Assembly: GCA_017499595.2 (NCBI GenBank)
Contig: CM039004.1
Coordinates: forward strand, 2,666,001 to 2,730,000
Origin: Psilocybe cubensis
Lineage: Eukaryota
Reading direction: 5' to 3'
DNA length: 64,000 bases
The notes under the pieces are model-generated. The model did no database searches. It had not been told where the DNA came from and worked only from the letters and a program-made list of their open reading frames with translations. Of this stretch, positions 1 through 41,168 are shown one piece after another. Position numbers and translations under genes: made by a program. Position 1 is the first letter of the stretch; each line of letters starts with the position of its first letter.

Positions 1-911
1 TGTCGCATGAGAGCGGACTTGGCTTTGGGCTCAGTACGCCCGGCGGACAAGGAGGATTTGGAGTGACAGAGGAGGAGAGCGGGGCCTGGGAGAGTCCTGA
101 GATTCGCGCGAGTATGGAGCGGGCGCGTGCGAGGGTGTTGGCTGCGCGCCGGGGTGGGGGTGGTGTATAGGTGTGAGGGATATGTGTAGGATAGAAGGAA
201 GAAAGGATCGGCGGCAGCGTCCACCACACCACAACATTCTACGCCGCGCTCAGAGTTCAAAGCGCGGTCAAAGTCATAGGCATCACCACCCGGTCTCCCC
301 TCTCGCCATGACTGGCAATGCTACACATTGGTCTTTGGTTTTGCGTAGATGCACTTGGGTATTGCTGGATGATAGAGTGCGACATGCACGCATTTGTATG
401 TGTATATCCTACCAATGATCACACCACGCGCTTTCAGAGGCAGAGGTGTGGAAATGTAGGAGCAGGGTAGGAAGAAGAGTATGAGGTGCGGTTACAGATA
501 GAGAAAGGAAAACTTAAAGAAGCGCAATGTTATGTTATGTTTTGTAATCTGCTGTGTGTAAATTAATATTCTTTATTGCTCGAAAAGTCATTTTGAGTAA
601 GATGAAAATAGTTGAAATCTGTGCTTCATTGGATTCTACAAGCTAACATCATACCCTATGCGTTTGGAGAGTCAAATTACAATATTTACGCCGTAGATTG
701 TTTACAAGGATTCACGTCGGCTGTTTTCAGGATCGGGTGCAGTATAGTTTTTGTGGATTTTGGAGGTCAAAGCGAGTGGTTTCCAGGGTCCTGCAGTGAC
801 TAGGGTATTTAAGGCGGTGCTGCTTTGTTCAACCGATGCCGCCGTTTATCCATCGTAAGTATATGGCATTTCTTCTAGGATGCGCTTTACTGATTCAGAC
901 CTCCTACAGAA

Positions 912-2471
912 ATGGCGTGGAATCAACTCGCAGCCGAACTATGGACAATGATTGCAGACGAGTGCGACGAAGACGGAGTCCGTGCACTATGCTCGCCCGA
1001 AATGCCACCGCACATCCGGGACAGCGCTCGCCCAGTTCAGTTCAGAAATCTGAACTTCGCGGCATACAACGTGCTAGACAAACTTGATTTTAACATCGAT
1101 CGATATCAATTTGCAAGATCTCTGGCCATAACTCAAATATTGAGCAATCGAAGGTTTACAGAACTCCCGAAAAGCCCACTTGTACGCCACGTCCGCTCCT
1201 GGAGGTATACAGGATATTTGGTTCATTCACCTCATCCTGGTATATCCAAACGGGAAAAGTTGATCGATTTAACAATGCAATTTCACGTTGACAAGGTGTG
1301 GCCACTGTTCCTAGCAAATCTTCACCTCTACGTTGGATTGACTAGACTTGCATTGCAAAATGTTGTCATTGACGATGTGGCCGTAACGTCTTTCAATGCG
1401 TTGGACAACCTGCAATCTCTTGAAATCACCCACTCTATTATCTCCTGCACAACAATTTTGCGTCCCTTTGACCGTTTAACACATTATACGCAACAAGAGG
1501 CCCGCGGCACCTTCCATGTTGAGTTTATGATGCCAGTGTGCTCTACTCTGACCTATTTGAATGTTGTCATCGGCACAGGTGACTACCGCAAACTGTATTC
1601 CGCTCTGGAGCAGTGCCATGTCCTAGATGCACTTTCAATTTATCTGATCAAAGAACAAGGGAAAGCGTTTGAATGTCCACCACCAGGGGTGGATCTTTCT
1701 ATCACAGCTTGTCCTAATTTATCCGAGTACATTGGACCTGCTTACTATTATGCTGCAGATATCATTCCAGGTCGGCCTTTACACACGATCAAGCTGAACC
1801 GATTACCGTGTAATGCAGAACTTGTCCATCCGGGATGCGTTGAATGGATCAAGGTGCTCTTTACCAGTGGAACGGTGCCCGTGGAACACTTTGACGTTGC
1901 TCAATGGCCGGCGTCTGCACTGTGTGCTGAAGAAACGTTCCCAACGTTGTTTCATAAATTTCCGCATCTAATATCATTGCGAATTGTCATCGAGCCGTTT
2001 GAAGGGACTGGCAACATCGACTTTGGTGACCAATTAGAGGCAGAGAGATGGAACACATATAATTACCTTGTAAGCATATGTTTTTCAGAGTGATTCTTGG
2101 CAAGGTGCATCTCGTTAATATCGTATCAGAACATCCTCCACACTCTCAGTGGACCACTTCCATACAAGATACCACCGACCTTGCGGACCTTGGAACTAGT
2201 CACTGAAGACGAATATGAAAGGCATCCAACTCACACTTTTGACAAGGTCGTAGCGGCACTCAGACACTCTGCAAATTTTACAAATCTGCGAACATTGATT
2301 GTTGGGACTTTGTATTGCTTCCAGAGGTGGACAAGATTGGAATCTGGAATCTGGGACGTCATACATGAAGGAGAATGCTTTAACCTTGACGGAGCGGAGA
2401 GGGAGCACTACAGCGAGTTTGACGACAGCTCGGATAATCATGGAAATGTGACGGAGGAGGAAGATACGTAG
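912..2471 (+). CDS. F-box-like/LRR-type protein, paralogue 1 (2 exons, intron 2070-2129)
   Basis: The N-terminus WNQLAAELWTMIADECDEDGVRAL resembles an F-box, followed by LxxLxL repeats and an acidic tail. A phase-0 GTAAGC..TATCAG intron joins ORFs 912-2093 and 2097-2471 in frame. Two close paralogues lie downstream. Confidence 0.75.
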
Positions 2472-3236
2472 CTACTTCTCAGCTAGTTTGCCATCTGAGC
2501 TGTAATCGGAACCATTGAATATGTCAGATTGAGCGTTCTAACAATAACTTGTATTCCGAGTCAAGAGATTGCGACGAGTTGTAGTTTCGCCTTCAATGGA
2601 TATTGTGGGTGCGAGCAGAATGCACAACATGTACTGATTACATTTTTGGCTGTCTAGAGTCCCGAGGAGAACCAAGCGAAGAATTCCAAGGAATTCAGCA
2701 CCTCAGATGAGAAGACAGTTCAAACTGAAGGGCAGAAGCAAGACAAAAGCAAGGTAGTTTTTGACAACCAAGATTATCGGGAACTGGGTGCACTTTGACT
2801 AGTTAAAGGTGCAGCTTCGAGTTTCAAAGTTAAGCCTACCGGTATTATGCCAAACGACGTGATTCAGACCCGCGGCCACCCGACCTTACTCGCCTTTGTT
2901 CTTGTCACACGACTTTGTTTTAATTTTACACGTCAGTTCGTTGACTTGTGTGTAGCGTTTTTGTCTACGTGACGCCATGGGTACCAAGTGGTACCAGTTA
3001 GCCTATTGTCTGGAAGACCTTTAGCGCATGATATCTCGGTAGTAATCATCATGTCTTTTGTCCGGTTGTTTACAATGACATTGGTCTGCAGATCTGCTCC
3101 ATGGTAACGCCTTTGTCAATGCAAGTCTATTTAACGTGCACTATGCTATGTTCAACCAGCATCGCTGAGTGCAAGTCATCCATTTCATCGTGGGTCTATT
3201 TCACTTTTGGATACATTGTACTAACCTCCTGCACAA

Positions 3237-4818
3237 ATGGGATGGGATCAACTTGCGGCCGAACTATGGACGAAGATTGCGGGCGACTGCGACAAGGATG
3301 GAGTCCGCGCCCTTTGCTCTCCAGAAATGCCACAGCACATCCGGGACAGTGCTCGCCCTGTTCAATTCCGAGATCTGAAATTTAGAGCATACAACATATG
3401 GGACGATTTGGATTTAAGCAATGTCGATTCGAATCAATATCCAAGTTCCCTAATCGAAATGCAGGAACGATCTCGACAAAGGTTTACTGAGCTCCCGCTG
3501 AGCCCAATGGTACGCCATGTCCGTCATTGGCAGTATATAGGGCATTTGCCACCCGAGCAGCCTATGAATCCTGACGTGGACAGCGAGCCTGAGTCGGTCC
3601 AGGAGAACATGAAGAAAACGTTTCTGCGAACGTATGCTGATGCGATGTGGCCACTGTTCAGAGCGTCACTTCCCCGCTACGTCGGATTGACCGAACTTGA
3701 ATTGACAAACGTAGTCATTAACGATGCGACTGTTACGTCTGTGAACACTTTGGGCAACCTGCGAACTCTGAAAATCATCAACTGCATCGTCCCCCGGTTA
3801 ACGGTTTTCTTGCGTCCCTTCGACCATTTAACGGAATATATACAACAAGAAGAGCATACCACCTTCCGCGTTGAGCTTATGATGGCGGTGTGCTCCACCC
3901 TGACCAGTTTGACTATTGGTGCAGGTAAATATCACTGGCGCGAGCTGTACTCTGCTCTGGAGCAATGCCAGGTGCTGCAGGAACTCGTCATCGAATTCTT
4001 CGAAGTCGAGGAGGTAGCCTTTGAAAGGCCGCCGCCAGAAGCACATCTTGCGATCACAGCCTGCCCTCGTTTAAACGACTACACCGGACCCGCCTACTAC
4101 GCTGCAGATATCATTACAGGTCGGCCTGTGCACACAATCAGACTCATACAATTACCCGATGGCGCAGAAGAAGATCCCGAATGCATTGAGTGGATCAGGG
4201 AGCATTTTACAAAGGGAACAGTACCTGTGCTAGTTTTTGATGGTTCGCGATGGCCGGCATATGCGTGTGCTGAAGAGGCATTTCCGACGATATTTCACGA
4301 ATTTCCGGATCTATCGTCGTTGCGGATTGTCATTGAAGCGTTTGTGTTAACGGATGAAGTCAATCTTCGTGACGAAGACGAGAGAGAGAGATACAAGAGG
4401 TGGCATTACCTGGTAAGCCGCGTTAGTTTGGACCACGATGCATTCATTAATGACATCGAATCAGAATATCCTCCATATTCTCAGTGGACCTCTCCCATAC
4501 GAGATACCGCCGACCTTGGAGACCTTGGAGCTAGTCACTGATGTGAATTATAACGAGCACCCAACTCATAATTTTGACGAAGTCGTAGCGGCACTCAGAA
4601 ACTCTGCAAATTTTGCAAATCTGCAAACATTAGTCGTTGGTACTAATGATTGCTTCCAGACGTGGACGAGATTGGAACCTGGAGTCTGGAACGTCGTACA
4701 GGAAGGAGATGGCTTTGACTTTGATGGAGAAGGTAGGGAATACTACAGCGACTCTGAAGACACATCAGATGATCAGGGAAATATAACGGAGGAGGAAGAA
4801 GCGTCTATAGATACTTGA
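3237..4818 (+). CDS. F-box-like/LRR-type protein, paralogue 2 (intron 4413-4464)
   Basis: Shares QLAAELWTKIA, DGVRALCSPEMP and YTGPAYYAADIITGRP with paralogue 1. The intron GTAAGC..ATCAG is at the same position, after WHYL. Confidence 0.75.
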
Positions 4819-5439
4819 CCACTTCCGCGAGTGATGAATCAGAGACTGCAGATTAGCTGAACATGATAGCCAAAGGAGCACCTGGAACATTAAACGTACC
4901 TAAATGTTTGTAGTTTTACGTGTAATCAGAACATTGAAGATATTATCAGTAACACCGGAAAATAAAATGGCCCACTTGAGTATGTCAGGCTGAGGGTGCT
5001 AACCAATGGCCGTCTCAACAACCTTTATTCCGAGTCCAGAAACGAGTTGTAGTCAGTGTTCGAGTCAGCGGAAGCTTCGCCTTGGACGGGCATCGTGGGT
5101 GCGAGTGTGTACAAAGTGTGCTGGATACATAGCCTTTCAATACCTGGAACCCTGGACAGCATCAAGGAAGGGGAATCCAAACGATGGAATTCGGTACATT
5201 AGAGGTCGAAATCAAGAGCAAGTGGCAAGGCGAAAAAAACATGGTGTGCTGTGACATGTTGTGGGCGGATTACATCAGCGCCGTCACGGCCCAGATTATT
5301 AAATCCTCGTCACGCCCTCCTCATCGTTTGTATCGCATTTGACTCTCAACCACCACAATCCTCGATTTTTCCATACTTCCACCACATATACTCACACTCA
5401 AGCATTCCCGCTCTTAATTTCAAACATCGTTTCACAAAG

Positions 5440-8030
5440 TTCCATTTTAGTATCCCGCCCAAGCTAAGTACTTTTACAGGTTGTCTCTAAACCTTACCCG
5501 CCTGAGAGGGTGGGACTCATATCTATTGCCCCTGGCTGGTTACCTTCGCCCTCGTACCCCAACCAAGCTGACTACATGCACAGGTCCTTTCACAGTCGTA
5601 TGAAATCATTTAAAGTCATGTTGACTGGAGGAATTCATAACCCACATGACGCCCCAACTGCTACCTGGTTCCTTTGTTTTTCTGTTTCTTGGCAAGGACT
5701 CTCTGGTGCGCATATATGCGCTGATTCTGGATCTTTTTCGACGTATTGCTCTACGAGTAGGACTGTTTCCATTTGGCTTGACCCAACCCGTTGCACCTTG
5801 CCTATTTTCGGATGCATGGTGAAGAAGATACACGGCTTTGTTTGTGCATATACGCACATATTCTCGCTGCATTGAGGTGTATTTGGCATTTCACTTTCTA
5901 TGCCTGGTTCTTGGTTTTTCATGTTTTCCATTTAAAAGTCTGCGGTTCATAAGAAGCGGGCTATAGCTCTAAACTGCTCTGCATCCCTCGTATATGCGCG
6001 TTTCTGGGAGCTGTTGCTGCTGTCCTTGCGATTTTCCTTATCTTCTGACTTGTATCTTGGGTCTACGTTTTGATGCACTTCCTTCTGAGCTGCGCATACA
6101 TTCTCAGTTATCACTCCTTCCATCATTGACAGTTGGACGATGAGCTTTCATCCCTCCCCAGAGTCTTGATGGTAAACTACTTTCACAGCTCTTCTTTGAC
6201 CTGGCTTGACCGATAACTCATGTTGACATCGACGAACTGTGTGCATAGGAAGCATCAAGTTTCTGGGGAAGGTTTTTGATTTCGTCTCTCGCGTTCCGGG
6301 GGCTACTCGTGGTGACATTTGTCTCAACCCAACCAGCTGAATTTCACTATTCTCGAATGTTTGGAAAGTATATGCTGCTCTGCTTGCGCATATACAAGCA
6401 CGTTTTCGCTGGTTTTCGGGTTCTTTATCTGGCTTTTATGTTTTCCTGATTTTGTTCCTGACATTTGTGGGTTCTCTGCGACTTTCCAGCGCTCTCCGAC
6501 GTGCACATACATGCACTGATCCTTCTATTGGTGCAACTTTCACGCTTCCTCCTCGTGTATCTTTTATTCTCGGCTTGTTCTTCGTCGATTTCAGACACCG
6601 CGCACATATTCTATACATTGCCGCCTTATTCTATACGCTGTGTCTGCAGGCTCACTTGGAACTGATGGCAGTCAAATGTCTTCTCTCTGTACTCTTCCAC
6701 AGCGTCTTGATATTACACTACCTTCACAGTTCCGCGTCTCGGATTGACTGGTGATAAATCATGCTCAAATCGACGGATTGTGTGCATAGGAAGCATCAAG
6801 TCGCTGGGGAAGAATTCAGGGATGTTGCATTTGGATTGACTTTCTGCTCCCAATATTTGATTGTTCTCTTTCAACTTGCCAATTGGCCATTTACTGTTTG
6901 CAGAGTTTGCATCTCAATAAATGCCCATTGTGTCCCCGCCATTGTGGTGGGGTCATTTCAAACCACTGGATCAGGCCTAATTGAAAATAGCTACAGCCAT
7001 ACGTGGTCATAACAAAGGTATGCCGTGTAGACTTTGCTTTATCTCTAATTAACAATGTTATTACCTTTTCTTTACTCACAGCAATCGTGCTCCTCCTTTA
7101 TATCACAGCATCTTGCGTGGCCCCAGATTTTCACTGTTGCTATTAGTAATGCCTTTGTGTTTTTTGAATGCTCTCTCACTTCGCATCACTATGAATAAAC
7201 CCGACGCGTACGTTCAGTTCGTTCCTCGTCGTAATGAAACACTCAGAAAAGGCTTGATCACTTTTGATGTTTTAGTGCTGTTACACGTGGCTCTGTGTAA
7301 ATGTGGCGTAGGTTTGACTGACAGGTGCATATGGCGTATCAAGTGCACAAATATTATCTTGGTTAGACACCAAATTTACGTGAAATTTCGTGTGGACTTG
7401 ATGTTCCGGTGGACCTAGACGAATGCGAATTTTCCTCTCCCGGAAGCTCCTTTATCTCGCTAGAGGACTCGACGACCACCTCCAGTGTAAGCCGGACGAG
7501 TTTTTGAGTACCTCTTTCAATTTGTAATCATGTATACCACGAACCTGACTCGTATCAAAGTTCACTTTTCGCCATATCAAGCAAGTGGTTCCTACCGCAG
7601 ACGTATAACCAGTCGTTATTCAGCTGGTGGTAACCCAATCTCTCCAGTATGTGCAGGAAGGGAAGTTCTGCAGAACCTTTCGGAGCTTGGATTCATTAAC
7701 GTTGAATTGAGCTCTACACCGGCCAGCCAGCTTCAATTTGACTGTTCTGGTTTTGGAAGTTTCGGGGGGTTCTCGCCTGGCATTTGTGCATCCCACGTAT
7801 ATGCGTGTTTCTAGGACCGGTTGCTACTGTCCTTGTGACTTGCCTTTTGTGTTCTGATAATACCTGTGGCTTGGGGCTATGTGTAGATGCTCTGCACTCT
7901 GAGCTGCGGATATACTCAGATTATTACTCCCTCCCTCCGAATTGGCAGTCGAACAATAAGCCTTCGTCATCCTCAGTGTCTTGATGGTAAACTACCTTCC
8001 AAGTTCTGCTTTGACTTGACTTGATTGATG
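5440..8030. repeat. Degenerate non-coding repeat region with ~540-bp units
   Basis: tgtgtgcataggaagcatcaagt..ctggggaag occurs at ~6238 and ~6779. ttgatggtaaactac occurs at ~6166 and ~7981, with a variant at ~6707. gcatat(a/g)(c/t)gc motifs recur. Related sequence is present at ~10540-10598 and 16111-16600. Confidence 0.55.
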
Positions 8031-8476
8031 GTATGCATGTTATTATTTTGGGACAAAGAGAAGAGATACTCTTCCCTAGAAGCAGAGGTCATAGTTTCAT
8101 TGTCTCAGGAAATCTCACAAATTCTCCTCACAAATTCTCACGTTGTTTGCTTACCCGTTCGATTGTTCCTCACTTGTATGTCCTAGTTCTTCTTTACTAT
8201 CAGTCACTGATCTCTAATTTTGAATCAGTCAACTATATATAATTGTGTATTGTCTTTTCCGACTAATTAAAGCTGGGTTGCCAACTATGCTGCCTTGTTA
8301 TATATGTAAGTGATTCGCTTTCAATGACATTGTTCTCCAATTCTGTTAGGGTGACACTTTTGTCTTTTTATATTGGTCAACATGGTATTTAACGAGGCGA
8401 TGTGCGGAGTGCAAGTCATCCGTCCCACTCTGGGTCTGATTTACTGCCATAACATCCTTTATCGACTTCTATATAA

Positions 8477-9986
8477 ATGGCGTGGAATCAACTTGCGGCC
8501 GAACTATGGACCAAGATTGCGGACAATTGTGATAGAGATGGAGTCCGTGCCCTTTGCGCCCCTGAAATTCCCGCGCACATTCGGGACAGTGCTCGTGTCG
8601 TATATTTCAGGCATCTGAGCTTCGGGACATACAACCTTACAGCTGATATTGGCCTTAGCAATGCCAATGAGGATCAATACCGAAGCTCCCTGATTGCATT
8701 GAAGCAAGAACGCTCACGTCAAAGGTTTACCGAGCTTCCGTTGACGCCTTTTGTACGCCACGTTCGTTCTTGGACCTATCATTCAATTTTACCTGGACTT
8801 CGTGCTACTGACGCAGTGGGAATGTACAATGGCACATTGTGGCCGCTGTTCATAGTAAATCTTCCCCGTTATATTGGATTGACAAGACTTGACTTGGAAA
8901 GAGTTGTCATCGACGATGCGGCTGTTGCATCTGTGAATGCGTTGGGGAATCTCAAAGATTTGAAGCTCAACTACGTCCTTGTTACCAGTAGAACCAATGT
9001 GTTGCATGCCCACAACTATTTAACTCGTCTGTTCTACGAGGACGACAGCTACAGTTTCTACCCCAGTTTATTCCTAGGAGTGTGCTCTACCCTTACCATT
9101 TTGGAGCTTGCGGTCACTAAAGATGAGTACCGCAAGCTGTACTCTACTCTGGAACAGTGTCATGTCCTGGAGATACTTTCCATTGACCTGTTGGAGACAG
9201 AAGAGGAACCCTTTGAAAGGCCGCCACTAGAAGAACCTCTTTCCCTCACAGCTTGTCCTGACTTGTCCCAGTACACCGGACCCGCTTACTACGCTGCAGA
9301 CATCATTACAGGTCGACCAGTTCATTCGATCAAGCTTACACAGACACCTGAACACGCAGAACAACATCCCGGATGTATTGACTGGATTAGGGAACATTTT
9401 ACAAAAGGGACGGTGCCTGTGAGAAGCTTCGATATTCCTCGTTGGGATGCGTCTGCATGTGAAGAGACATTTCCGACGCTGTTTATGGAGTTTAAGAATC
9501 TAGAGTCGTTGCGGATTGTTATTGATCCAATCCTTTTGGCTGACGCAGGCAATCATGATGATGAACCAGGGAGATCCGGAAGATACAACGCCTGGCATTA
9601 CCTCGTAAGCGAATTTTTCTCAACAAAGGGTATTTTAATTAACGCCATACCAGAATATCCTCCATCTTCTCAGTGGTCCTCTCCCGTATGAGATTCCATC
9701 GACCTTGCGAGTTTTGGAGCTAGTCACGGAAACTAAATACGAAAGGCACCCGACTCACACTTTCGACCAAGTCGTAACGGCGCTTAGAAACTCTCCCCAA
9801 TTCGCCAATCTGCGAAAGTTAACTGTTGGGACTGAGCAGTGCTTTCAGACGTGGCAGAGATCGGATGCTGGAATATGGGATATGACACAGCGTAAAGTCT
9901 ACGAATTTGACTTTGATGGAGAAGAACTGAGAGAAAGCGATTTTGAGGACGACGTGTACGACGAAGGAAGTGAAATGTATGAATGA
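8477..9986 (+). CDS. F-box-like/LRR-type protein, paralogue 3 (intron 9605-9653)
   Basis: Same motifs and same intron position (GTAAGC..ACCAG). Exon 2 continues NILHLLSGPLPYEIP into ORF 9705-9986. Confidence 0.75.
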
Positions 9987-10598
9987 GGTGGATGAGTGAG
10001 TGAGGCCGCGAGTTGGCGGAAGAGGTCAATACCTGTAACAACAATTAAACGTGATTACCCTGGACTGATTACTTATGCCCTTGTTTACTTCCGTCAGTAT
10101 ATGTTGGCGATTCTGTTCGTTTTTGGACTTAAGGGTACCAGTGTTGATTCTGGCCGCCGCTATATCGCTGGAACTCCTGAAATGACAAAAGACTGTGTGC
10201 ATTGCCTGTATATTTCCCAAAATTTGAAAAGTACTGGGCCAGTGGTAGCTTGGCGGCTGAGATGAAAAGAAGTAAATGGTTGAGAACATCGGAAGGATGA
10301 AAATCGAAAATTGTGTGTCGGTGACAGATAACATCAGCCGTCACGTTCCATAGTCACGCACTCATCGAGGTTTATGTCGCGGTTTGGTCGCGGTTGAACG
10401 TTGACTCTTAACCACCACCGTCTTCCTTTTCCCTTGACTTTTCAAACCAGCAGCACGCTAATTAATGTTTTCCATGTCCTCGCTACTGTTCCAAATTATT
10501 CTGATGCGCCCATTTCTAAAAAACTCATAGGCGCCGAGGCTGGTTAGTTTCGCCTTCCTCCCCGCCCAAGCTAATTATCGTTTACAGGACATCTCTAC

Positions 10599-11015
10599 TG
10601 TGAGATATTCAATACGCAAACGCATCGAGCACTCGGCGCGCGTACGATAGCCCTGCCCAGGGCATCCACAAACCGCCACAAGTATGTACATCTTATTATC
10701 TGTATTATACCTTTTGTTCTGTACATTCTCGGGCGCTTTCGCCACTATTCCATTTCGGTTTCTCAGTTATTCCACTGTATATACTCCGTGTTTCATAGTT
10801 GTTACTATCTATGTACATTAGCTACACGCGCATATAAATGCGCGTGCTTCGTTCTCTCGAACCTCAGTCGTTCTGTTCGAACACGACTGAGGTGAGATTC
10901 TATTATTTGTTTCTTATTTACTTCTCACTTACTTTGTACAAAGCTCGTATTAGGTATTTACTCAATATCAGTCGTTCTGTTCGAACACGACTGAGCTCGT
11001 ATTAGTTTTCTTACA
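10599..11015 (+). repeat. Copia 5' LTR
   Basis: tgtgagatattc...ttttcttaca, repeated at 15694-16110. TATAAA at 10833-10838. Confidence 0.97.
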
Positions 11016-11027
11016 GGTTATGGGCCC
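11016..11027 (+). promoter_or_regulatory. Primer-binding site of the copia/Ty5 type (internal initiator tRNA-Met fragment)
   Basis: GGTTATGGGCCC follows the LTR directly, has no TGG start, and matches the Drosophila copia-type PBS. Confidence 0.8.
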
Positions 11028-11090
11028 CGGCCCCATTGCTTAAACTCAAATTAAAGCCTTACCTCGTGAATTTCTGTACCTACTGTCAAC

Positions 11091-14000
11091 ATGTCTGCTG
11101 TAACCACTACTGCCGTGCTCTCGGACACGCTGCCGTCGTCCATTCCGAAGCTGGATGCTACGGGCGTGAATTGGGCCATCTTCCGGGTCCGTTTCCAGGA
11201 CGCTGTTGAGGCAAAGGGTCTCTGGGACCACTTCGACGGCTCGTCGACACGTCCTGAGGTGTCCGACGTGTCTCCTGCTCCTGTGGTTGCACCTGCGACC
11301 GCCCCCGAAAGCGCGCCTGCCACCTCTGCCGTGGTACAAACAACGCCAAAGCCCTCTGCCGAGGACCTTGCCGCACAGCAGAAGTGGGACAAGGACGAGT
11401 TGTCGGCGAAGTATCTGCTCACGCAGAAGATTCCCGACTCGACGCTAATGCGTGTGCACTCGAAGCGATTCGTCCGCGAGCGCTGGGAGGCTATTGTGGC
11501 CGAGTATACGGAAAAGGGCGCATATGCGCAGACGGATCTTCGAACCCGATTCCTCGAGTCGAAGTGCCCCGACAAGGGCAACGTTCGCGAGTTCCTCGAC
11601 AACCTGCGAGTGAAACGAGAGGAGCTAGCTTCTGTCGGTGTTGATATCGACGAAAAAGATTACCGTTCCGTTATCATTTCGTCCCTCCCCATCAACCTGT
11701 CCAATTTCGCATCTAACCAACTCGCTTCGGCCCGTTTGTTTGCCCCGACAAAGACTCTGTCTCCTGACGTCCTTATTTCTCTCATCTCCGAGGAATTCGA
11801 GCGTCAGAAGACGCAGCGCAGCCGACGCACGGGAAAGTCGAAGGACGATGACAAGGACGAGGCCTTGTCCATGGGTGTTGCGTCGTCGAAAGGCAAACCG
11901 GCCGGAAAATCGACCTCGAAACGCGACTCGAAGCCGCGCGGCGCCTGTTATAACTGTGGCAAGAAGGGGCATTTCAAGCAAAACTGCCCGAAGCCGCTGA
12001 AAGGCGAGAAGTCGAATGACAACTCGGCAGGCAACAAGAAGGCCGGCGACGTACACGCCGTGCTCGAAACGGAGTCTGACAGCGACGGTGTGCATGCTGT
12101 GTTCACGGCGACTGTTTCGGAGGCAGACTCTCTGCCGGATCTCCAGTCTGTGTCGAAGACGGATTCGGAGAGTGAGGGGGAGGCGGATGATGAGGGTGAG
12201 GTCGCGTTGATGGATGGCGATGACTTTTCGGAGGTGGGAAGTGATGCAGGCGACTTTGATGACCCCGCGTGGGACTCTGATGAGTTTGCAGAGCTGTTGG
12301 ATGACGTCGAGGAGGGTGCGCACGCTATAATCGATGAGATTAGTGCGACGTTCGATGCTGCAGCCGCTAATCACGCACCTCGAGTGGAGATCTATGACTC
12401 CGGGTCCACTCGCCACATCTCGCCCTACCGTGAGGACTTCAATACCCTCACGGAAACCTCTCCCCTATCCCTACGTGCTGCGAACAAAGGCGAATTCTGT
12501 GCTACGGGGATTGGATCAATGACTATTGATGTCCCAGACGGGGTAGATGTCAATAAACTGACACTTACCGAGGTCCTTTACTCGCCGGAGGTAGGGTACA
12601 CCCTCATTTCCATCGGACGGCTCGACCAGAATGGCTTTTCAGCCACGTTTGGCAATGGCAAGTGCACCATTACCGGCCCCGAGGGCGAGCGCGTGGGCAG
12701 CATCCCCATCAACTCGAAGGGGATGTATCGCGTGGCACATGAGGCCGACGCAGCCAATGCTGTGGTCGAGCAGATCACGCTCGACCAGTTCCACCGTCGA
12801 ATGGGCCATATTGCGCCCGAAACGGCGAAGCGCCTTGTCGAAAAGGGCTTCGTGACTGGTATTTGTCTTGCCACAGCCTCGAACAACGAGGCCTTCTTTT
12901 GCGAATCGTGCGTCTATGCGAAAGCGACGCGGCGGCCGGTGGCGAAGGAACGAGGTGGTGAGCGAGCGGCGGCGTTTGGCGACGAGATCCATTCAGATCT
13001 GTGGGGACCTGCACCGGTAGAAACGAAGGGTGGTAAGCGCTACTACGTCACGTTTACAGATGACGCTACGCGACTCACCCGATTGTACCTGCTCTGTCTC
13101 AAATCCGACACCTTCGAAGCCTATCGAGAGTACGAGGCTTGGTGCGAGACCCAGTTTGGTGTTCGCATCAAGTGCCTGCACTCAGATAAGGGTGGCGAAT
13201 ATGAAGGGAAGGCATTTGTTGCTCACCTGAAGACCCGAGGCACCATTCAGAAACAGACCGTCCACGACACACCGCAGTTTAACGGCGTCGCGGAACGGCG
13301 TAACCGCACCATCATCGAGCGTGTGCGTGCGCTTCTGCATGCCAGTGGCCTTCCGAAATCATTGTGGGGCGAGGCATGTCGTCACGTCGTCTGGTTATTG
13401 AACCGCACGTCCACGAAGGCGCTCAAGGGTGTGACACCCTACGAGGCTGCATTTGGCAAGAAACCCGACCTCAGCGAGCTGCGCGAGTTCGGCGAAAAGG
13501 TGTGGGTGCGACTGGAGACGGATGCTATGAAGCTGGGCGGGCGGGTGAAGGAGGGATGATGGCTGGGCGTTGACGAGAAATCAAAGGGTGTGAGGGTGTA
13601 CTGGCCGGATAAAAAGACAGTGACGGTGGAGCGTAATGTCTATTATGACAAAACACTCTCGTCAGTCTCTCGTCTCGAGGGGGAGGAATGGGAAATAGTC
13701 GAGGCGAAGACAGACGGACTCACCGACAACCAGGCTGCAAATCAGCCTATCGAAACTCCCGCAGAACCTCAGGTAACCCCTACCGCATCCCAAGCAACAC
13801 CTCGCGTCGAAATCGACCCCGATAACGCCACAGACAGTGCCTCAGAGCCCGAGGCACGTCCAAAACGTGCTCGAAAGCCCACCCGACGCATCCGCGACAT
13901 CCTCGAAGGTGTCGGTGTCGCATCCCATCGCCCGAGTGACCCCAGAATCACCAGGGGCATCACGGTACCCTCCACCGAACCTCCTGCTCCCTCGTCTTCA

Positions 14001-15686
14001 CGATCCGTCGATGTTGAGGGGGAGGATGCATCCCTCCTTGCCGAATACAATGTCGTCGAGTACAACGACGTATATGCACTGGTGGCTGATGTTGCGGAAG
14101 CAGAGGCGCTCGAACCACGGTCGTTGTCGGAGGCGAAAAGGCGCCCCGACTGGTTGCTGTGGAAGGCTGCGATGGATGAGGAAATGGAACTGCTGAAGAA
14201 AGCAGGAACGTGGGAGATTGTTGACGCACCTGAGAACACGAATATTGTCGGTTTGAAATGGGTGTTTCGCGCAAAAAAGGACGCCGCGGGCAATGTCGTA
14301 CGCTACAAGGCGCGTCTCGTCGCGCAAGGCTTCTCCCAGGTGCCGGGTGTCGACTATTTCGACACGTTTGCGCCCGTTTCGCGTCTTGCATCGATCCGGG
14401 CAGTACTTGCTGTTGCTGCCATCAACGACTACGAAATTCAGCAAATTGACATCAAAGGAGCGTACCTGAATGGAGTCCTCAAGTCCGACGAAATCATCTA
14501 CATGCGACAAGCGCCTGGTTACGCTGTCGCACCCTCATCCTCCTCTACCCCGGTCTATCGTCTTCGAAAAGCCCTGTATGGTTTGAAGCAGGCGGGTCGG
14601 CGTTGGTACGAACGGCTCGTCGAGATAATGGTGAAGCACCTCGGCTTCTCGAGGTGCGCGGTCGACCAGGCGGTGTTCGTGAGGAAGGGAGGGCGAGGAG
14701 ACTTGGTCATCGTGTTGGTACACGTTGATGATTGCACAATCGTGGCAACGCGGACTGAGCTCATAGCTGAGTTCAAAATTGCGATTAGTCAGCACGTTGA
14801 TATCACGGATCTAGGCAACATACACTGGCTCTTGGGCATCGAGATCATCCGCGACCGCGCTGCGCGTCGCATCTACCTCTCCCAACGATCGTATATCGAC
14901 TCGATAATTCGTCGATATGGCCTTCAGGACCTCAAGCCCGTTTCCCTGCCTATGGATCCGAACGTACGACTCACATCGACACAATCCCCGACTACCACAG
15001 CTCAATTTGCGAAGATGCGTGATGTCCCGTATCATGAAGCGGTCGGATCGCTCATGTACGCGTCACTCGGTACGCGTCCCGACATTGCCTACGCTGTCCA
15101 GACCGTCTCGCGTTTCTCGACGAACGCCGGCGAACCTCATTGGGAAGCGGTAAAGCGAATTTTTCGCTATCTGAAGGGCACGAAGGATCTCTGGCTGTCA
15201 TATGGAGGACAGCAGAGGGAGTTAGCAGGGTACGCAGATGCGGATGGGAGCATGGCCGAGGATCGGCATGCTATCAGCGGGTACGCTTTTATTTTACACG
15301 GCGGCGCAATCTCCTGGTCGGCGAAGCGACAGGAGATTATTTCACTCTCGACAACCGAATCCGAGTATGTTGCAATTACTCACGCCGCGAAGGAAGGATT
15401 ATGGCTACGATCCCTCCTCAAGGACCTCTTCCCATTGACTCTCGACACCACCGTCTTATTTTCCGATAACCAATCCGCCATTGCGCTCACGAAAGATCAT
15501 CAATATCACGCTCGCACGAAACATATCGACATACGCTTTCATTTCATTCGATGGATCATCGAAAACGGTTCGATTCGCCTTGTCTATTGCCCGACCAACG
15601 ACATGGTCGCTGACGCATTCACGAAGGCGCTTCCGTCGCCCAAAGTCAAGCATTTCGCGGCCGAGCTTGGGCTCGTATCCGTTTGA
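11091..15686 (+). pseudogene. Copia Gag-Pol polyprotein interrupted by one in-frame TGA (13557-13559)
   Basis: Zinc knuckle CYNCGKKGHFKQNC, protease YDSGSTRH, integrase HRRMGH..CESC / HSDLWG / HSDKGGEY / NGVAERRNRT, RT RYKARLVAQGFSQ / LYGLKQAGR / HVDD, RNase H GYADAD / STTESEY / RTKHIDIRFH. ORFs 11091 and 13590 share a frame and are separated only by the TGA. Confidence 0.93.
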
Positions 15687-15693
15687 GGGGGAG

Positions 15694-16110
15694 TGTGAGA
15701 TATTCAATACGCAAACGCATCGAGCACTCGGCGCGCGTACGATAGCCCTGCCCAGGGCATCCACAAACCGCCACAAGTATGTACATCTTATTATCTGTAT
15801 TATACCTTTTGTTCTGTACATTCTCGGGCGCTTTCGCCACTATTCCATTTCGGTTTCTCAGTTATTCCACTGTATATACTCCGTGTTTCATAGTTGTTAC
15901 TATCTATGTACATTAGCTACACGCGCATATAAATGCGCGTGCTTCGTTCTCTCGAACCTCAGTCGTTCTGTTCGAACACGACTGAGGTGAGATTCTATTA
16001 TTTGTTTCTTATTTACTTCTCACTTACTTTGTACAAAGCTCGTATTAGGTATTTACTCAATATCAGTCGTTCTGTTCGAACACGACTGAGCTCGTATTAG
16101 TTTTCTTACA
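15694..16110 (+). repeat. Copia 3' LTR
   Basis: Direct repeat of 10599-11015, preceded by the PPT and followed by TSD TCTAC. Confidence 0.97.
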
Positions 16111-16662
16111 TCTACCTCTACCCGCTCATATAGGACTGTGGACGCTACGGTACTTGGAGAATCTTGGTAACCCATGTGGATGAAATGGAGCCTTGTTTTC
16201 TTGGACTGCTTACGACCTCAGTTGGTCGACTCTCCAGCCATATCGCGTGTGCATATATGCGCGTATTCTCGCTCTTTTCGAGGTTGTTTGATGCTTCTAT
16301 TGTCTTTGAAGTCCATCTGGGGATTTCTTGTGCCATTTCTCTGCACTTTGCCCTCGCGTTGTCTAATTTCAAATGCTTGCAGAGGCTACGCGAGTTTGTA
16401 TGCGCGTTACCCGGCTCTGTGGGCGCATATACTCGCTGATTTTGGATGTATTTACTGTTTTGTCCGCTGCGCTTGGGGTTTGTGGGTCCTAGCTTTTGAT
16501 TTTGCTTGTGGGCTGTGCGTTATGGCTTTGCGACCCTTTTTGTGCGCATATATGCACTATTTTTTGCTCTGCTTACAGCCTTCCAATTGACTCTTTCGGC
16601 CGGCGTGTTTGGCTTTCGAGCTTTTTCAATGGGTAGATGGGGATCTGCATCACTTTACCCTG

Positions 16663-17096
16663 TGTCAGGGTTTCTCCAGTTTCCCCTCTTTATCTTCACA
16701 GAATTATCTTATCCTTTCATTATCTTATCAATTATCTGATTAGATAGTTTATTTCTTTCATCACAGCCTTCTTGCTCCACTTCTTTCTAGTAAATTCTAT
16801 ATGATTCCTAGTCTTACTCATCCTTTTTCTATATGATGTCACTTTTATTCTTTAACCTTCCTTTATGATGTAATGTAGGGAATATTCTAGAATAGCTGTA
16901 GAGTATAAATACTGGACTTGTAGGTAGCTGTAGCTTCAGCTTCAATCTCTTAGGATATCCACTATCATTGGTGTGATCTCTTAGAACCATTGAATCTCTC
17001 TCACTCTCTTATTCTCTCTTTGCTCTCTTACTCTCCCTCTGCTCTCTCTCTCTCTCTCTTGCTTAATCTTTGTTGGTGGCCTTGTCACACTGATTA
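16663..17096 (+). repeat. Gypsy 5' LTR, main part (last 16 bp displaced to 35230-35245)
   Basis: Matches 40719-41152. TATAAATA at 16904-16911, and a (CT)n tract near the end. Confidence 0.96.
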
Positions 17097-21197: not shown

Positions 21198-23557
21198 CTA
21201 CATATTTACAACTTTGACACCACGGGACGGGGGGAAGATTTGAATCAAAGATGTTGTCGGAAAAGTTGGGAATGTATCACCGCGTTTCATACGAGTAACG
21301 GGATATTTATGTACAACGCAAATATCCTTGTCTATTGATCGTATCCTGAATATAATCCCCATTGAATCGCCCTCAAGCGGTGTAACGAAGTCGTCCTTTT
21401 TTACAGGATGAATTGGAAACAACACTGATTTCGGTAATGTCAGTGTACGTCCCAGTAATGCTAGGTGGGCAGTATCGTCGGTAAGGCTGAGAAGTTCCAT
21501 CGCCACTTGATGGTCGCCCTTGGATTTGTCTACGACTTTTAATCGTAATCCTTTCAGCTTATCGTATTTCGTATCTAGCCAGTGAGCGACGGTTGAGGGT
21601 AGTTCTGCGATTTCCACCGCCGAGTGTACAGGTATTGCTGAATACGGATTCCATGCAGGAGACAGAAAACTTGCTACTGTGGACGGCATTGGAGTTGCTC
21701 CACCAGAAGGCCCGGGGTCTTGAGCGGAATTTATATGTTCTCGGTTGCTTGAAACAATGTCAGTAAGCACCTGACAGTCAACGAATCAAGTGAAACCACA
21801 TACTGTATAATTAAATGTGATATTTTAATACGTTCCACCCTCTGGTTACGAGCTTCCAGCTCAACGTCTGCAAAGCCGTCGGGGGTAGTGCTTTTAACGA
21901 TGCCATAGTACCCCTTGAATGTATTATTCCCGACAACGATGACACTCAAACCTATATAGACGTCGTTGTGGTCTCTTTCTCCAAGCTTTGACGAATGACG
22001 CTTTCGCGGGCGAAGAGTAGCATGGGCAGGGGGGACGTAGAATATGACTGTGTGGATGGGCACAATGACCTGAAAAATGTGTTGAACACTACTGAGACAA
22101 AGAGAATGACAGTTCACCTACTTCGCGTTCGTGCTCTGGGGCGATAATACAAACAGATCTTCCATCAAAGTCTGACACCCATCCATGGAGATCTTTGTGA
22201 TCCCCTTCAACGACTTCAACACTATCGCCTATCTGGAAAGCTGCACGTAGATCGTGTAGTGCAACTGCTTGTGTTATACCTTGGGAGGGGATGTGCACTT
22301 CCACCTCAGCGTCAGAAACACTCTTGACCGTTCCAAAAAGACCTAAGTATTCTCCACCAATAATTTTGACTCGATCATATCGTTTCAGTCGAGTCATGGA
22401 GATGGCTTTCGAGGCTTGCGCTAAGGTCTCCGTCGTTACAAATGGACACTCGCGAAATTGCTCCAACTCGGACGATGTTGGGAGGACATTGGAAAGATAT
22501 TTGAGATCGATGGCGTCGAAATCCGTGATAATAAATCCATCCTGGAATATCCTGTCGAGGTGCGATTTCTTGATGTTGTCCGGAGGTCTGGGGATAAGAA
22601 CAACACTTTTCCGACCCTGGAATGTGAACACAAGGCCGGTAGCATTTGCGTAGGTCGTCCAAGCCTTACGCTTTCCAGCAACCTTGACCCACGATTGGTC
22701 TTCAGGGCGTGAGGGTGGGGGATGAGATAGGATCTCCATACATCTCTCCGAGGATAGCCTAACTAAATGTGTCGGATTAAGCTCTCTAACGAGGCAGGCT
22801 AACGTATGCGCATGTTGCATTGATGGCGCCTCGACGTAGATTCTCCCAGGAATTGAGGATTGAGCGAAGACAGACCGGGCAAGGATGATGGGAAATGTAG
22901 GGTTCGTTGACATCTGCATAATTTTGAAAGCGACGGCCTCTTCGTGTCCAACCTATCACTCGTAAGGTGATCAATAAATGCTGACTGAAGACTTATATTA
23001 TTTTTGCGTACCTTGCAACCTATTTCATACATGATATCAGTCGCGGAAGGCATATAATTATTATCACCAAGTCCTCCTGGTTGGGGATTGCCATATTTCT
23101 GTATAAGTTCTCGTGAACTAGATGGCTCTATATCATTGTCAGGACGAATTTTCATGCGTGAAGGCAGAAGCATGGGCAACAAATCGCTCCATTCATCAGC
23201 GTTATCTGTATTTTGCATGGCATGATATAGCCGAGAGTGTGCAACACGTTCCTCATCCTCAGAGAATTCATCGTTATCATTCACTGTATGTCAGAACCCA
23301 TTAGCATCAGTACATATTGAGCAGAATATATGTAAATTATTGGAACATACGTAGTTGGCCCCCTTCATAATCAAGCTCTTCCGAACTTTCATCATCATCG
23401 GAAACCGCTGCTTCAATGTCTATGAAGGGATTAATGTCCTGATTTTTTGAGATCATAATTAAATTTCCCTGAAGTTAGTGATTAGATGGAGGGTTGGATT
23501 AGTACACACTGTGCGGTTGCCTAGGCTGTCAAGTCGTCTGCGTTTATAACTAGACAT
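21198..23557 (-). CDS. Divergent Spt5-like protein (acidic N-terminus, NGN domain, several KOW motifs), multi-exon
   Basis: NPFIDIEAAVSDDDE resembles the Spt5 N-terminal motif. YEIGCKVGHEEAVAFKIM..SVFAQSSIPGRIYVEA resembles NGN. KOW-like motifs: YDRVKIIGGEYLGLFGTV, FQIGDSVEVVEGDHKDLHGWV, IGLSVIVVGNNTFKGYYGIVKS. GGATPMP..SPAWNP may be a CTR remnant. Confidence 0.8.
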
Positions 23558-24176: not shown

Positions 24177-27100
24177 ATGGTGGATTTCCTCCGACGATAT
24201 GAGGACTTCACCTTTTTGAATTACGATGTTTCATCATCGAGCATGCGAGCGGCCATCAAGTATAGGCAAAGCTTGGCTGCCCTTCAGAACAGCATCGTAG
24301 AGACACCCTGCGTAACCTCGGCTACATGGGAGCAGGCGGGTAGCTTATTTGCAGCATACCGTCTACTCGATCTCGTAGCGTTGTGGCCAGCAGCCTTTGG
24401 ACCATCGTTGCCGGTGACCGTGCCCCTGAATGAAATACAGGCCAGCACAGGAACTAAGGAAATATTTTCACGGTTCAAGGTATGCGATCATGAAGTCACT
24501 CAATGTTAATTCTTAATTTTCAAACAATTATTGTAGCTTGTAGATGACTTGAAGGACTGGCCGGCAATGCTCTGCTCTGCCAGGAAGCGCATCCTCAGAG
24601 CCGACTCTAAGTCGCACAGAAACATCAACACCCCTTCTATCAGTGACACGCCGTCATCCGCTTTCACCCAGGGCGGGCCCTCGGAATCAACGCTATTACT
24701 CTGTCTGGCGCGTAACCACTTCAAGGGTGTTGTGGGGAAAATAATCGGGAATGTGTACTGCGCCTCGCTACACTACCAAATCTTGTCAGGAATGCGCGGT
24801 ATGAAGGACGATGAACACGTTCTACCAGACATTCCAACGGACACGGCTACTCTTGCAAATCTCTAGTAAGTTTTCTTTCCTCTATTCATTGATACAATCT
24901 GCTCAACATACCCTAGTGCAAGCGGCCATCCTGATGCTGCGTTGTTCCTCTCAGAGGTCACGCCATCTCATTTAAAAATTCCTCTGCATGTCGCCCTTTT
25001 CATATCCCCCATCCTTCTTTTTGTGAATAAATCTTGGTATTCTAAGAAATGTGACCGGGAGCAGCTGCTTAAAGTAGGTGTATCCACATCCTCCCAGTTT
25101 AACTTGGATTAACGCACTCCTTTAGGCCTCAAAAGCGCTCGGTAATTGTCGCCCCCGTGTTCTGCGTGAAGTGGAGATGGAAATTTGGAAAATCATTGCA
25201 GCGCAAAATTGCGACATCCAGTCAGCCTTATATAAACTTGTTATCTCAGACTGCTGGATGGAATGCGAGCGGGTAATTGCACAAGATCCCGCGTTTCACT
25301 TTTTCATATGTGTGTTCTACGTACTGTAACAAAATAACAATTTAAACTAATAATTGGCCAGCGTCAACGAGCAGCGCCGAGGTTACAGCAAATTCTAACC
25401 TAGCAAGGCGCAGCACTGAACCACACGGTAAGTTATAAGCAAAGTCTGCGTCAATTACATGATTTAAATCCGTTTAAAACAGCTCAACTTCAGACCGTTT
25501 CCCATCATGGTGAAAAAACCACCTGTGAAGGGTCCGACGCAGACGCGGAGGGTGACGATGATCACGAAGTGGACACGACAGAAATGGTCAGCATGGGTCA
25601 ACGGGAGAACGGGGACAATACGGTCCCTACCTCAAATATACAGCCTCCGGAAGACACGTCTTCAGTGGCTGGCAAGGATGTCAGCATGGGTCAACAGGAG
25701 AACGGGGACAATACGGTCCCTACCTCAGATATACAGCCTCCGGAAGACACATCTTCGGTGGCTGGCAAGGATGTGCCCACGGACGAGCAACCTGGTTTGC
25801 CGCGGAGTGATGATATTGGATCTGGTCTACTTCAGACTGAGAATACTGGGCCCTCATCTGCAGGGGATTGTGAGATGAACGTCGATCCGGAGCAAGCTGA
25901 TGTCGACCATCAAATGGAGGATGGTCCACATACCAATGGTCCAGAAAATTTGGGAGATGGCGGGGCTGGACAAGGAGCTGAAGGGTCTTCTGACGAGGCA
26001 AATCGTATGTCGGAAGTTCACGAGGGCGAAAAGCAGGGGCAAGACGGAGAACGACCCGACGAGGAGAACCGAATGTCAGAAGATGGTGAGGAGGAAAGGC
26101 CAGACGACAGTTCGTCGGACAATGAGACCGAGAAGCAGGGGCAAGGGGATGTTCCACCAGTCCAGGAGGACAGAATGTCGGTCGATGGAGAGGGGGTAGG
26201 CCCAGAGCAAAACAATGATTCCTCAGACATGGAGAGGAATACATTGGAAGACAGCCAAGGCGAAAAGGAGGGGGAGAACGCACCTCCTGCTCCTCTTATT
26301 TTGAGGATTCCTCCTGTTTCCCAGATAAACAGGAGCAAAAACACCACGGCTGACTCCTCTCAGAAAGGGAAAGGGAAGGGCCGGCAGGGCCTTTCCAAGC
26401 GGCCTCCCAAACGCAAGCCGACGCAGGCTACCGACACATTTGATTCGGACGACGACCTGTGTATTGATGTCGATCTGTACGACAGCAACACCACCCTTGA
26501 TGTCGTCAGCACTCCGGAGAAGGTGTATGGCACCAAAGTTTGGTCCACCTACAACGGTCGTGGCCAACTTAAAAGTTTCTGCGTTGTTGCCCATGTAAGT
26601 CATTCTCGATATTGATTTTTTCGTCATTTATTTATTCTCCAAACAAGAGTCAAGCCGACGTGGATCGTGTTGAAAGGGTTCTGGAATTGGTCGAGAGTGA
26701 CTACGTCGATGGAGTTCCATTGCACATAGCACGTCCCGAAGAATCATGTTTTGCGGTATTCGACCGCAGCACCACGAAATCCATGTATCTGATGGAGTCT
26801 TTCTCTGAAAGGAACGTCGTCCTTATGTCTCCTTCTCAAGAGGAGTCTATTTCAACTTGCTCCGACGAGTTCTACAGCCAGGTACGTCGCCATATGGGTG
26901 ATATGACGAGCACCAGGTCAATCCAAGGTGTGTTTCCTCTTCGATGTTTTGATTTTTCTTTCTGCGTCTCATGCTAATGGCCGTAACAGATATGTCGACC
27001 ATGTCGTCTAACCCCATCGAGAGGATTAAGCGTGGGTCCCTCTCTCAGGTCATGGAAGCAGCGAGGATGAAAGGCAAAAGAGGAAAGATCCTCAATGCCC

Positions 27101-40718: not shown

Positions 40719-41168
40719 TGTCAGGGTTTCTCCAGTTTCCCCTCTTTATCTTCACAGAATTATCTTATCCTTTCATTATCTTATCAATTATCTGATTAGA
40801 TAGTTTATTTCTTTCATCACAGCCTTCTTGCTCCACTTCTTTCTAGTAAATTCTATATGATTCCTAGTCTTACTCATCCTTTTTCTATATGATGTCACTT
40901 TTATTCTTTAACCTTCCTTTATGATGTAATGTAGGGAATATTCTAGAATAGCTGTAGAGTATAAATACTGGACTTGTAGGTAGCTGTAGCTTCAGCTTCA
41001 ATCTCTTAGGATATCCACTATCATTGGTGTGATCTCTTAGAACCATTGAATCTCTCTCACTCTCTTATTCTCTCTTTGCTCTCTTACTCTCCCTCTGCTC
41101 TCTCTCTCTCTCTCTTGCTTAATCTTTGTTGGTGGCCTTGTCACACTGATTATAGTGTTGCCCTGACA
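40719..41168 (+). repeat. Gypsy 3' LTR (intact)
   Basis: 450 bp, TGTCAGGG...CCCTGACA, followed by TSD CCCTG. Confidence 0.97.

Follow-up and report, generated by a model that had tools for sequence, protein, structure and literature searches.

The retrotransposon and the layout of its LTRs

The window, i.e. the whole 64,000-nucleotide stretch of Psilocybe cubensis DNA that was analysed, was found to contain a Ty1/copia LTR retrotransposon with the following features.

10599–16110, forward strand: Ty1/copia LTR retrotransposon
10594–10598 and 16111–16115, forward strand: target-site duplication TCTAC (5 nt) flanking both LTRs
10599–11015, forward strand: 5' LTR, 417 nt, TG..CA, 100% identical to 15694–16110
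11016–11028, forward strand: primer-binding site of the GGTTATG(G/A)GCCC type, a motif common to relatives
11091–15686, forward strand: gag-protease-integrase-reverse transcriptase frame with one in-frame TGA at 13557–13559
15685–15693, forward strand: polypurine tract adjoining the 3' LTR
15694–16110, forward strand: 3' LTR, 417 nt, TG..CA, with parts as in the 5' LTR

The order of the domains predicted by Pfam in the coding frame (Retrotran_gag_2, zf-CCHC, Pol_BBD, gag_pre-integrs, rve, SH3_retrovirus and RVT_2), together with the identical TG..CA LTRs, the short target-site duplication, the primer-binding site and the polypurine tract, places the element among the Ty1/copia elements (Pseudoviridae). 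Although its LTRs are 100% identical, the polyprotein is not open, the TGA at 13557–13559 lying in the C-terminal part of the integrase, and because of this stop the young copy in the window is probably non-autonomous.

The primer-binding-site motif is located 60–70 nt ahead of gag in most relatives. Drosophila copia primes from the anticodon stem-loop of initiator tRNA, and this LTR-adjoining motif looks like the complement of such a stem-loop. Ty5 has been described as priming from the initiator tRNA anticodon stem-loop (PMC5371799). Neither the window nor 16 long loci yielded a tRNA gene for comparison with the motif. It should also be noted that the motif contains an ATG, common to the motif of the relatives, which opens a 7-codon upstream frame (11020–11043 in the window) before gag.

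The 5' LTR was divided into the parts below, the exons and introns being predicted from the sequence.

10825–10846, forward strand: 22-nt palindrome found by inverted-repeat search, with TATAAA (10833–10838) at its centre, presumed core promoter
10862–10867, forward strand: CCTCAG, with the presumed start site at A 10866
10864–10891, forward strand: E1, putative first leader exon, 28 nt, a near-palindromic hairpin
10887–10892, forward strand: CTGAGG, complement of CCTCAG, covering the last bases of E1 plus the initial G of intron 1
10892–10943, forward strand: predicted intron 1, 52 nt, GTGAGA..CTCAC..AAG, with CTCAC 15 nt before the AAG end
10944–10953, forward strand: E2, putative 10-nt micro-exon ending in TAG
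10954–10967, forward strand: AT-rich spacer, 14 nt, beginning with GT, candidate poly(A) signal and 5' portion of putative intron 2
10954–11005, forward strand: putative intron 2 (spacer and E1'E2'), 52 nt, GT..AG
10968–11005, forward strand: E1'E2', exact spliced copy of E1 and E2, proposed working R and 3' part of putative intron 2
11006–11015, forward strand: U5 tail, 10 nt
15959–16110, forward strand, the same parts in the 3' LTR: E1 15959–15986, intron 1 15987–16038, E2 16039–16048, spacer 16049–16062, E1'E2' 16063–16100, U5 16101–16110

A scripted string test found 10968–11005 to be an exact match to E1 and E2 joined, with a 52-nt GT..AG piece precisely missing. The start-site-like motif (10862–10867) and this U5-adjoining repeat lie 104 nt apart and match only after the 52 nt are removed. 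The 28-mer of E1 occurs four times in the window compared with 0.00 expected from 100 shuffles, which excludes a chance origin of the repeat, and the boundary of the deletion, as read from the sequence, can slide over three positions only, one of which gives GT..AG. The missing piece (10892–10943) also has the sequence characters of a spliceosomal intron, namely GT..AG ends, a branch-point-like CTNAY and a length in the usual range for introns of Agaricomycetes. The coordinates proposed in a first-pass annotation for TATAAA, E1, the GT..AG piece, E2, the second piece and the joined copy were all confirmed by this sequence check, as was its claim of the same structure in the 3' LTR (15959–16100), the two LTRs being 100% identical. 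Its placing of the start of E1 at 10864 agrees with the exact match in the window, but the relatives put the common left boundary of the copy at the A of CCTC/AG, which is 10866 in the window. Judging from this comparison, the two extra matching bases at 10864–10865 may be due to chance.

The element was present in 11 public sequencing runs, none of which is recorded as RNA, and four of these were compared over 10450–15693. A contig of run X10 was found to hold the 3' end of another copy in a different flank, with a complete ungapped 417-nt LTR carrying two substitutions, both upstream of E1. In the raw DNA reads of run X13, where the depth over the LTR is about 80–90, no joint inside 10864–11015 was detected at a 5% threshold. 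Since the X10 LTR is ungapped and no such joint occurs in X13, the LTR structure is kept in other copies. Contigs of X10 and X11 that extend from the interior of the element across an entire unspliced LTR and on into the flank resemble DNA or read-through and are uninformative on splicing.

Eighteen X13 reads showed a different U3 with its own TATA region, joined to the same sequence from 10848 on; by eye, this TATA region apparently has flanks similar to the palindrome at 10825–10846. The X13 reads also differed from the window copy over 10450–15693 by C>T at 206 places and G>A at 197, with each other type at 5–66, a bias suggestive of a RIP-like process or of deamination in methylated repeats.

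Other repeats were observed in the window. A 434-nt direct repeat, 100% identical, is present at 16663–17096 and 40719–41152, 24 kb apart, the latter copy being the 3' LTR of a Ty3/gypsy chromovirus (gag 35737–36840; pol with chromodomain 36849–40718). Between the two lie a Spt5-like KOW gene fragment (22089–22919, minus strand) and a Plavaka transposase ORF (30147–32009), and the region is a recombined or nested arrangement. Three diverged direct copies (66–81% identity) of a roughly 1.5-kb unit at about 900–2420, 3226–4754 and 8466–9943 probably represent a tandem gene family spanning 900–9950. Two tandem 93-nt units, 96% identical, were found at 25587–25772 inside an ORF without a Pfam match (25569–26615).

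Conservation of the layout among related elements

Relatives of the 822-aa gag-integrase part were found at up to 60% identity, with the named ones all belonging to Agaricomycetes (Cyclocybe, Agrocybe, Pisolithus and others). When 24 aligned proteins were used as query, 80 metagenome loci were retrieved, whose gag-protease-integrase proteins are 37–60% identical to that of the window, while a scan of viral contigs with the 822-aa part gave no relative. The LTR layout was searched for on both strands with a script requiring a GT..AG gap of 40–75 nt whose flanking bases (12 + 8) recur contiguously within 120 nt with at most two mismatches. This resulted in 44 matching LTRs in 35 loci plus the window and in no match in 498 kb of shuffled sequence. 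Six loci were added by eye, namely L053 and L066 (mismatches or an indel), L021 (contig end) and L011, L014 and L050 (cut inside intron 1), bringing the layout to 41 of the 80 loci. Matches with two mismatches in L025, L037, L043, L044, L047, L061 and L062 were rejected by eye as repeat-array or non-LTR-end sequence, and a perfect minus-strand match in L079 was left unannotated. The set of 37 representative elements omits two truncated LTR copies (L008 position 1 and L073 position 5290).

The first-pass annotation had called for a survey of other basidiomycete copia LTRs for the same architecture with unrelated sequence and co-varying copies, and had held that a duplication unique to the window copy, with non-conserved GT/AG, would speak against its reading. 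The survey was positive (41/80 loci, with 24 sequence clusters) and the duplication is not confined to the window copy.

Among the 42 loci holding the gag start and at least 260 nt upstream of it, the layout was present in 29. The other 13 comprise six with a TATA box near a different hairpin, the chimeric-looking L031, three with other LTR ends (L033, L035, L037), two in which E1 is followed directly by U5 (L055, L056) and L049, which reads E1-intron 1-E2-U5. A tree was constructed from the protease-integrase part with 68 rows, 13 too-short loci being omitted, with SH-aLRT support and the root assumed on L055/L056. This tree placed the layout on most branches and the 18 rows with other LTR ends in one nested clade (support 93). 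The topology fits an old origin of the layout with at least one loss, the polarity depending on the assumed root. With that root, the nested clade has evidently persisted without the layout, which counts against the strand-transfer model proposed below.

The LTR ends of L020, L022, L024, L025, L026, L029, L030, L051, L062 and L065, which form a nested clade, have no leader intron or duplicate. They show a TATATA-type box with a GAAT(A/C)NA word within about 10 nt after it, then another kind of hairpin and a U5 rich in T, the primer-binding site being unchanged. Their arrangement may derive from the spacer and E1' of the complete layout. L055 and L056, which have identical upstream regions and are the most distant relatives (39% identity), show TATA, CCTCAG, an E1-like hairpin ending in CTGAG, U5 and the primer-binding site. 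Being without intron or second copy, they represent either the ancestral state or a collapsed form.

Across the representative elements E1 measures 22–36 nt and ends in CTGAG in 34/37, while intron 1 measures 46–59 nt and has CTNAY 5–30 nt before its 3' end in all 37. Its 3' ends are TAG in 30, CAG in four and AAG in three, with GT[GA]AG at the 5' end in 25/37. The finding of GT..AG at intron 1 in 37/37 is itself circular, GT and AG having been search criteria. A scan free of preset boundaries also returned GT..AG for the sites adjoining the primer-binding site. A second scan of this kind was noisy, with 24 GT-AG events and 51 others, most of the latter falling, as placed by coordinates and not by reading their sequences, in repeat-array loci and three being off-by-one duplicates of true sites.

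E2 is 10–26 nt long in these elements and U5 about 7–58 nt. The junction of E2 and spacer reads AG/GT in 37/37, which lay outside the search criterion and is hence non-circular, and E2' also ends in AG. This supports a second intron-like piece, or at least a conserved donor at this place, although as donors the sequences at putative intron 2 are weak (GTA.., GTGAAT). The spacer measures 7–19 nt with a mean A+T of 0.78 and contains AATA or ATATA in 30/37. It is a candidate poly(A) signal on account of its A+T richness and of these short motifs, which are likely to occur there by chance.

The start of E1 carries CCTCAG in 35/36 elements, and CTGAGG is present in 33/36. The E1' copy starts at the A of CCTC/AG in 22/37 and 1–4 bases upstream in 15/37, never downstream. 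A TATA-like box under a strict motif lies 30–36 nt upstream of CCTC/AG in 22/35, with most of the remaining 13 showing, by eye, weaker A/T-rich words at the same place. So sharply defined a left boundary, placed at an initiator-like site, would be expected if strong-stop cDNA had ended there on reaching the transcript's 5' terminus.

Concerted change of the exons and their spliced copy

Comparison of E1E2 with E1'E2' of the same element showed 52 mismatches over 1950 nt (97.3% identity), with 20 of 44 LTRs perfect, a median identity of 0.98 and a minimum of 0.88. Between elements, the median identity was 0.63 for E1, 0.53 for E2 and 0.60 for E1E2, and the E1E2 sequences fell into 24 clusters at 80% identity. 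The close relatives L002 and L003 differ in E2, as do L013 and L076, and E2' tracks E2 in each of them. Transitions account for 47 of the 52 within-element mismatches, the same bias as that seen in the X13 reads. L063 combines a perfect 5' LTR with a diverged 3' LTR in which three mismatches separate E1E2 from E1'E2'; because of this pattern the within-element mismatches look like decay after insertion, for which an excess of transitions is also expected.

This suggests that the spliced exon sequence keeps being written into the downstream copy. As a simpler alternative, the first-pass annotation had named a one-off capture, in which a single aberrant strand transfer joined spliced-leader cDNA behind an unspliced R, to be inherited passively and without a role. 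For a single copy this would be the simplest origin, and the two LTRs of the window alone cannot exclude it. However, a passive relic would decay independently, whereas the 24 clusters keep their copies 88–100% alike yet differ by about 40% among themselves (97.3% within against 0.60 between). Direct repeats are also loss-prone in reverse transcription, yet the layout persists across proteins 37–60% identical. A one-off event should not give such a pattern, and this alternative is rejected as exceedingly unlikely.

The likeness of the copies could also be due to selection with no reverse transcription of spliced RNA, if E1 and E1', and E2 and E2', bind the same factor or pair together. E1 is near-palindromic and able to pair with E1' (minimum free energy −51.7 kcal/mol, z −4.3), as this would require, but E2 is non-palindromic and matches E2' equally well. 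The junction is, moreover, exactly the spliced junction in every family, and base-for-base identity across loops and linkers rarely comes from selection alone, making this explanation very unlikely. Gene conversion at the DNA level, or repeated independent duplication between copies, scarcely deserves credence. Conversion between short repeats is known in general and no result obtained here supports it; in each family the converted stretch would need to end precisely where the intron borders lie, beside an E2 of 10–26 nt. The precise absence of intron 1 from the downstream copy points instead to an RNA intermediate and, since it recurs in all families, is indirect evidence that intron 1 is removed by splicing.

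It is also conceivable, if improbable, that two start sites are used. The replicated RNA would then start at E1' (10968) with E1'E2' as R, and E1-intron 1-E2 would be the first exon pair of a separate, translated mRNA situated in U3. Once spliced, such mRNAs would have the same sequence as RNA begun at E1', and their occasional reverse transcription would be enough to hold the copies together. BARE, a copia element of plants, uses distinct RNA pools for translation and replication (PMC3735527), TATATA is present in some spacers, and rare homogenisation would suffice for 97% identity. The spacer of 7–19 nt abuts E1', however, such that a TATA within it would be too close for a start at the first base of E1', and the spacer in the window has no TATA. 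The left boundary of the copy coincides in every family with the upstream CCTC/AG motif, which is explained by a strong-stop end and not by a second promoter.

A separate observation concerns L005 (4358–4516), where E1 and E1' have identical stems while their 5-nt loops are reverse complements of each other. E1' is thereby the exact reverse complement of E1, a hairpin 'flip' which suggests snap-back or strand switch in reverse transcription.

Spliced strong-stop cDNA as a proposed means of keeping leader introns

From the sequence patterns above, it is considered probable that the leader introns in both LTRs are kept through strand transfer of spliced strong-stop cDNA onto the embedded spliced copy. 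R would be present twice in each LTR, as E1-intron 1-E2 at the transcription start (about 10864–10866) and as the pre-spliced E1'E2' about 100 nt downstream. In the 5' leader, removal of intron 1 (10892–10943) and intron 2 (10954–11005) would give E1.E2.U5-PBS, with removal of intron 2 also taking the candidate poly(A) signal of the spacer out of the leader. At the 3' LTR the transcript would be cleaved within or just after E1'E2', with intron 1 staying unspliced. Minus-strand strong-stop cDNA of the spliced leader could then anneal to E1'E2' at the 3' end of the RNA and be extended through the spacer, E2, intron 1, E1 and U3. The new LTR would thus take the part from U3 to spacer from the 3' LTR of the parent and E1'E2'-U5 from the spliced 5' leader, both introns being inherited and E1'E2' overwritten by spliced E1.E2.

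Concerted change is what the strong-stop model of the first-pass annotation predicts, and that model is supported by the survey and the co-variation. Its wording that the introns are regenerated 'each cycle' is stronger than the data require; the copies would also stay alike if spliced leaders often served as templates. An unspliced leader would likewise rebuild the LTR, via a long ordinary R, so that the model needs spliced leaders to be common templates and not the sole ones. In terms of chemistry the spliced copy is, by the same token, not strictly required.

A fuller reading, in which the terminal redundancy is itself made by splicing, appears about as likely to be right as wrong. U3 would then be 10599–10967 and R 10968–11005, the latter matching the transcript's 5' end only once both introns have been taken out. 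Splicing would be built into retrotransposition, the introns, as enhancers of expression, kept for good and the poly(A) signal of the leader removed, with a CCTCAG/CTGAGG stem retaining intron 1 at the 3' end.

It should be noted that strand transfer of this kind depends on a template whose 3' LTR still contains intron 1, for which none of the present results gives a reason. As to the proposed stem, the CCTC pairing partner of GAGG would be transcribed only in the 3' LTR, where the complete stem would hide the intron 1 donor. Single-sequence folds gave a stem-loop in 37/37 E1 sequences, mostly with the first bases pairing near the 3' end, with z below −2 in 15/37 only. When RNAalifold was applied to 36 E1 stretches, the invariant 6-bp outer stem was all that it returned, with misalignment of the inner stems, and as all six pairs are invariant the CCTCAG/CTGAGG stem gives no covariation support. 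In local folds the unpaired fraction of the donor was 0.52 versus 0.24 at the 3' end (31/36 elements, p 1.7e-6), a difference obtained almost by construction, and in longer-context folds no difference between the ends was detected (0.22 versus 0.20, p 0.24).

A tandem form without intron 1 (E1E2-spacer-E1'E2') was seen at none of 62 primer-binding-site-like sites, and so either templates seldom lose intron 1 from their 3' LTR by splicing or the resulting progeny fail to spread. L012 was found to be its sister L023 minus exactly the spacer+E1'E2' unit, and L049 is likewise without that unit. Such LTRs would be a predicted by-product of transfer from spliced leaders, and they would arise equally from deletion between repeats in reverse transcription.

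As the replication of retroelements goes through processed RNA, loss of introns is expected of them, and the disappearance of an engineered intron is the standard marker of retrotransposition; introns engineered into Tto1 are lost in the cDNA and serve as a marker of reverse transcription (PMC3061985). Ordinary Ty1/copia elements and Tto1 share with the present element the superfamily, the U3-R-U5 logic and a first strand transfer by terminal redundancy (PMC3061985). In contrast to Tto1, two LTR-internal introns appear here to have been kept across a whole clade whose proteins have diverged to 37–60% identity.

Full-text literature searches returned no account of an LTR that holds both an intron and the corresponding spliced copy, and the copia element in the window shows an LTR of new design. 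A likeness to its putative splice site is found in foamy virus, where R contains a splice donor upstream of the poly(A) signal, the 5' poly(A) site is suppressed through binding of U1 and a different RNA fold at the 3' end has been proposed to allow cleavage (PMC3694450). In both, a 5' splice site, putative in the present element, is located within the LTR, after the start and before a known or candidate poly(A) signal which is, or here would be, ignored at the 5' end and used at the 3' end. In foamy virus, as described there, the acceptors are situated beyond the LTR at a distance downstream, R is contiguous and the packaged RNA is unspliced, whereas the present element, known by its sequence, has both putative introns wholly inside the LTR and a built-in pre-spliced copy of the exons.

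In synthetic split-intron retroviral vectors, LTR duplication yields a functional intron in the progeny provirus (Ismail et al., 2000, as summarised in PMC3182074). These vectors are engineered and pair a donor in the 3' LTR with an acceptor outside it, and the summary mentions no embedded spliced copy or renewal over several cycles. A 2026 maize preprint (10.64898/2026.05.08.723830) reports spliced LTR-contained transcripts as, to its authors' knowledge, the first evidence of introns in LTRs. Those introns have a mean length of 1303 bp and belong to non-coding RNAs contained in LTRs, and the accessible portion of the preprint connects them with neither strand transfer nor a spliced copy. In BARE, also copia-type, the translated and replicated RNAs differ and splicing is involved, but this splicing affects coding sequence and the pools are set apart by their start site and capping, with no LTR intron or spliced copy mentioned in the passages concerned (PMC3735527).

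An intron is reported to be needed for efficient transgene expression in Ganoderma (PMC7017817) and Armillaria (PMC4935854), and by analogy expression in an intron-requiring host is a plausible benefit of the leader introns. The co-varying spliced copy can be regarded as a sequence record of the reverse transcription of spliced leaders. If the proposed cycle is true, it would be a natural answer to the combined problem of having introns, silencing the poly(A) signal of the 5' LTR and defining R, and would offer a design principle for intron-bearing retro-vectors. For the annotation of LTR retrotransposons, it would mean that 'R' is not always one contiguous block.
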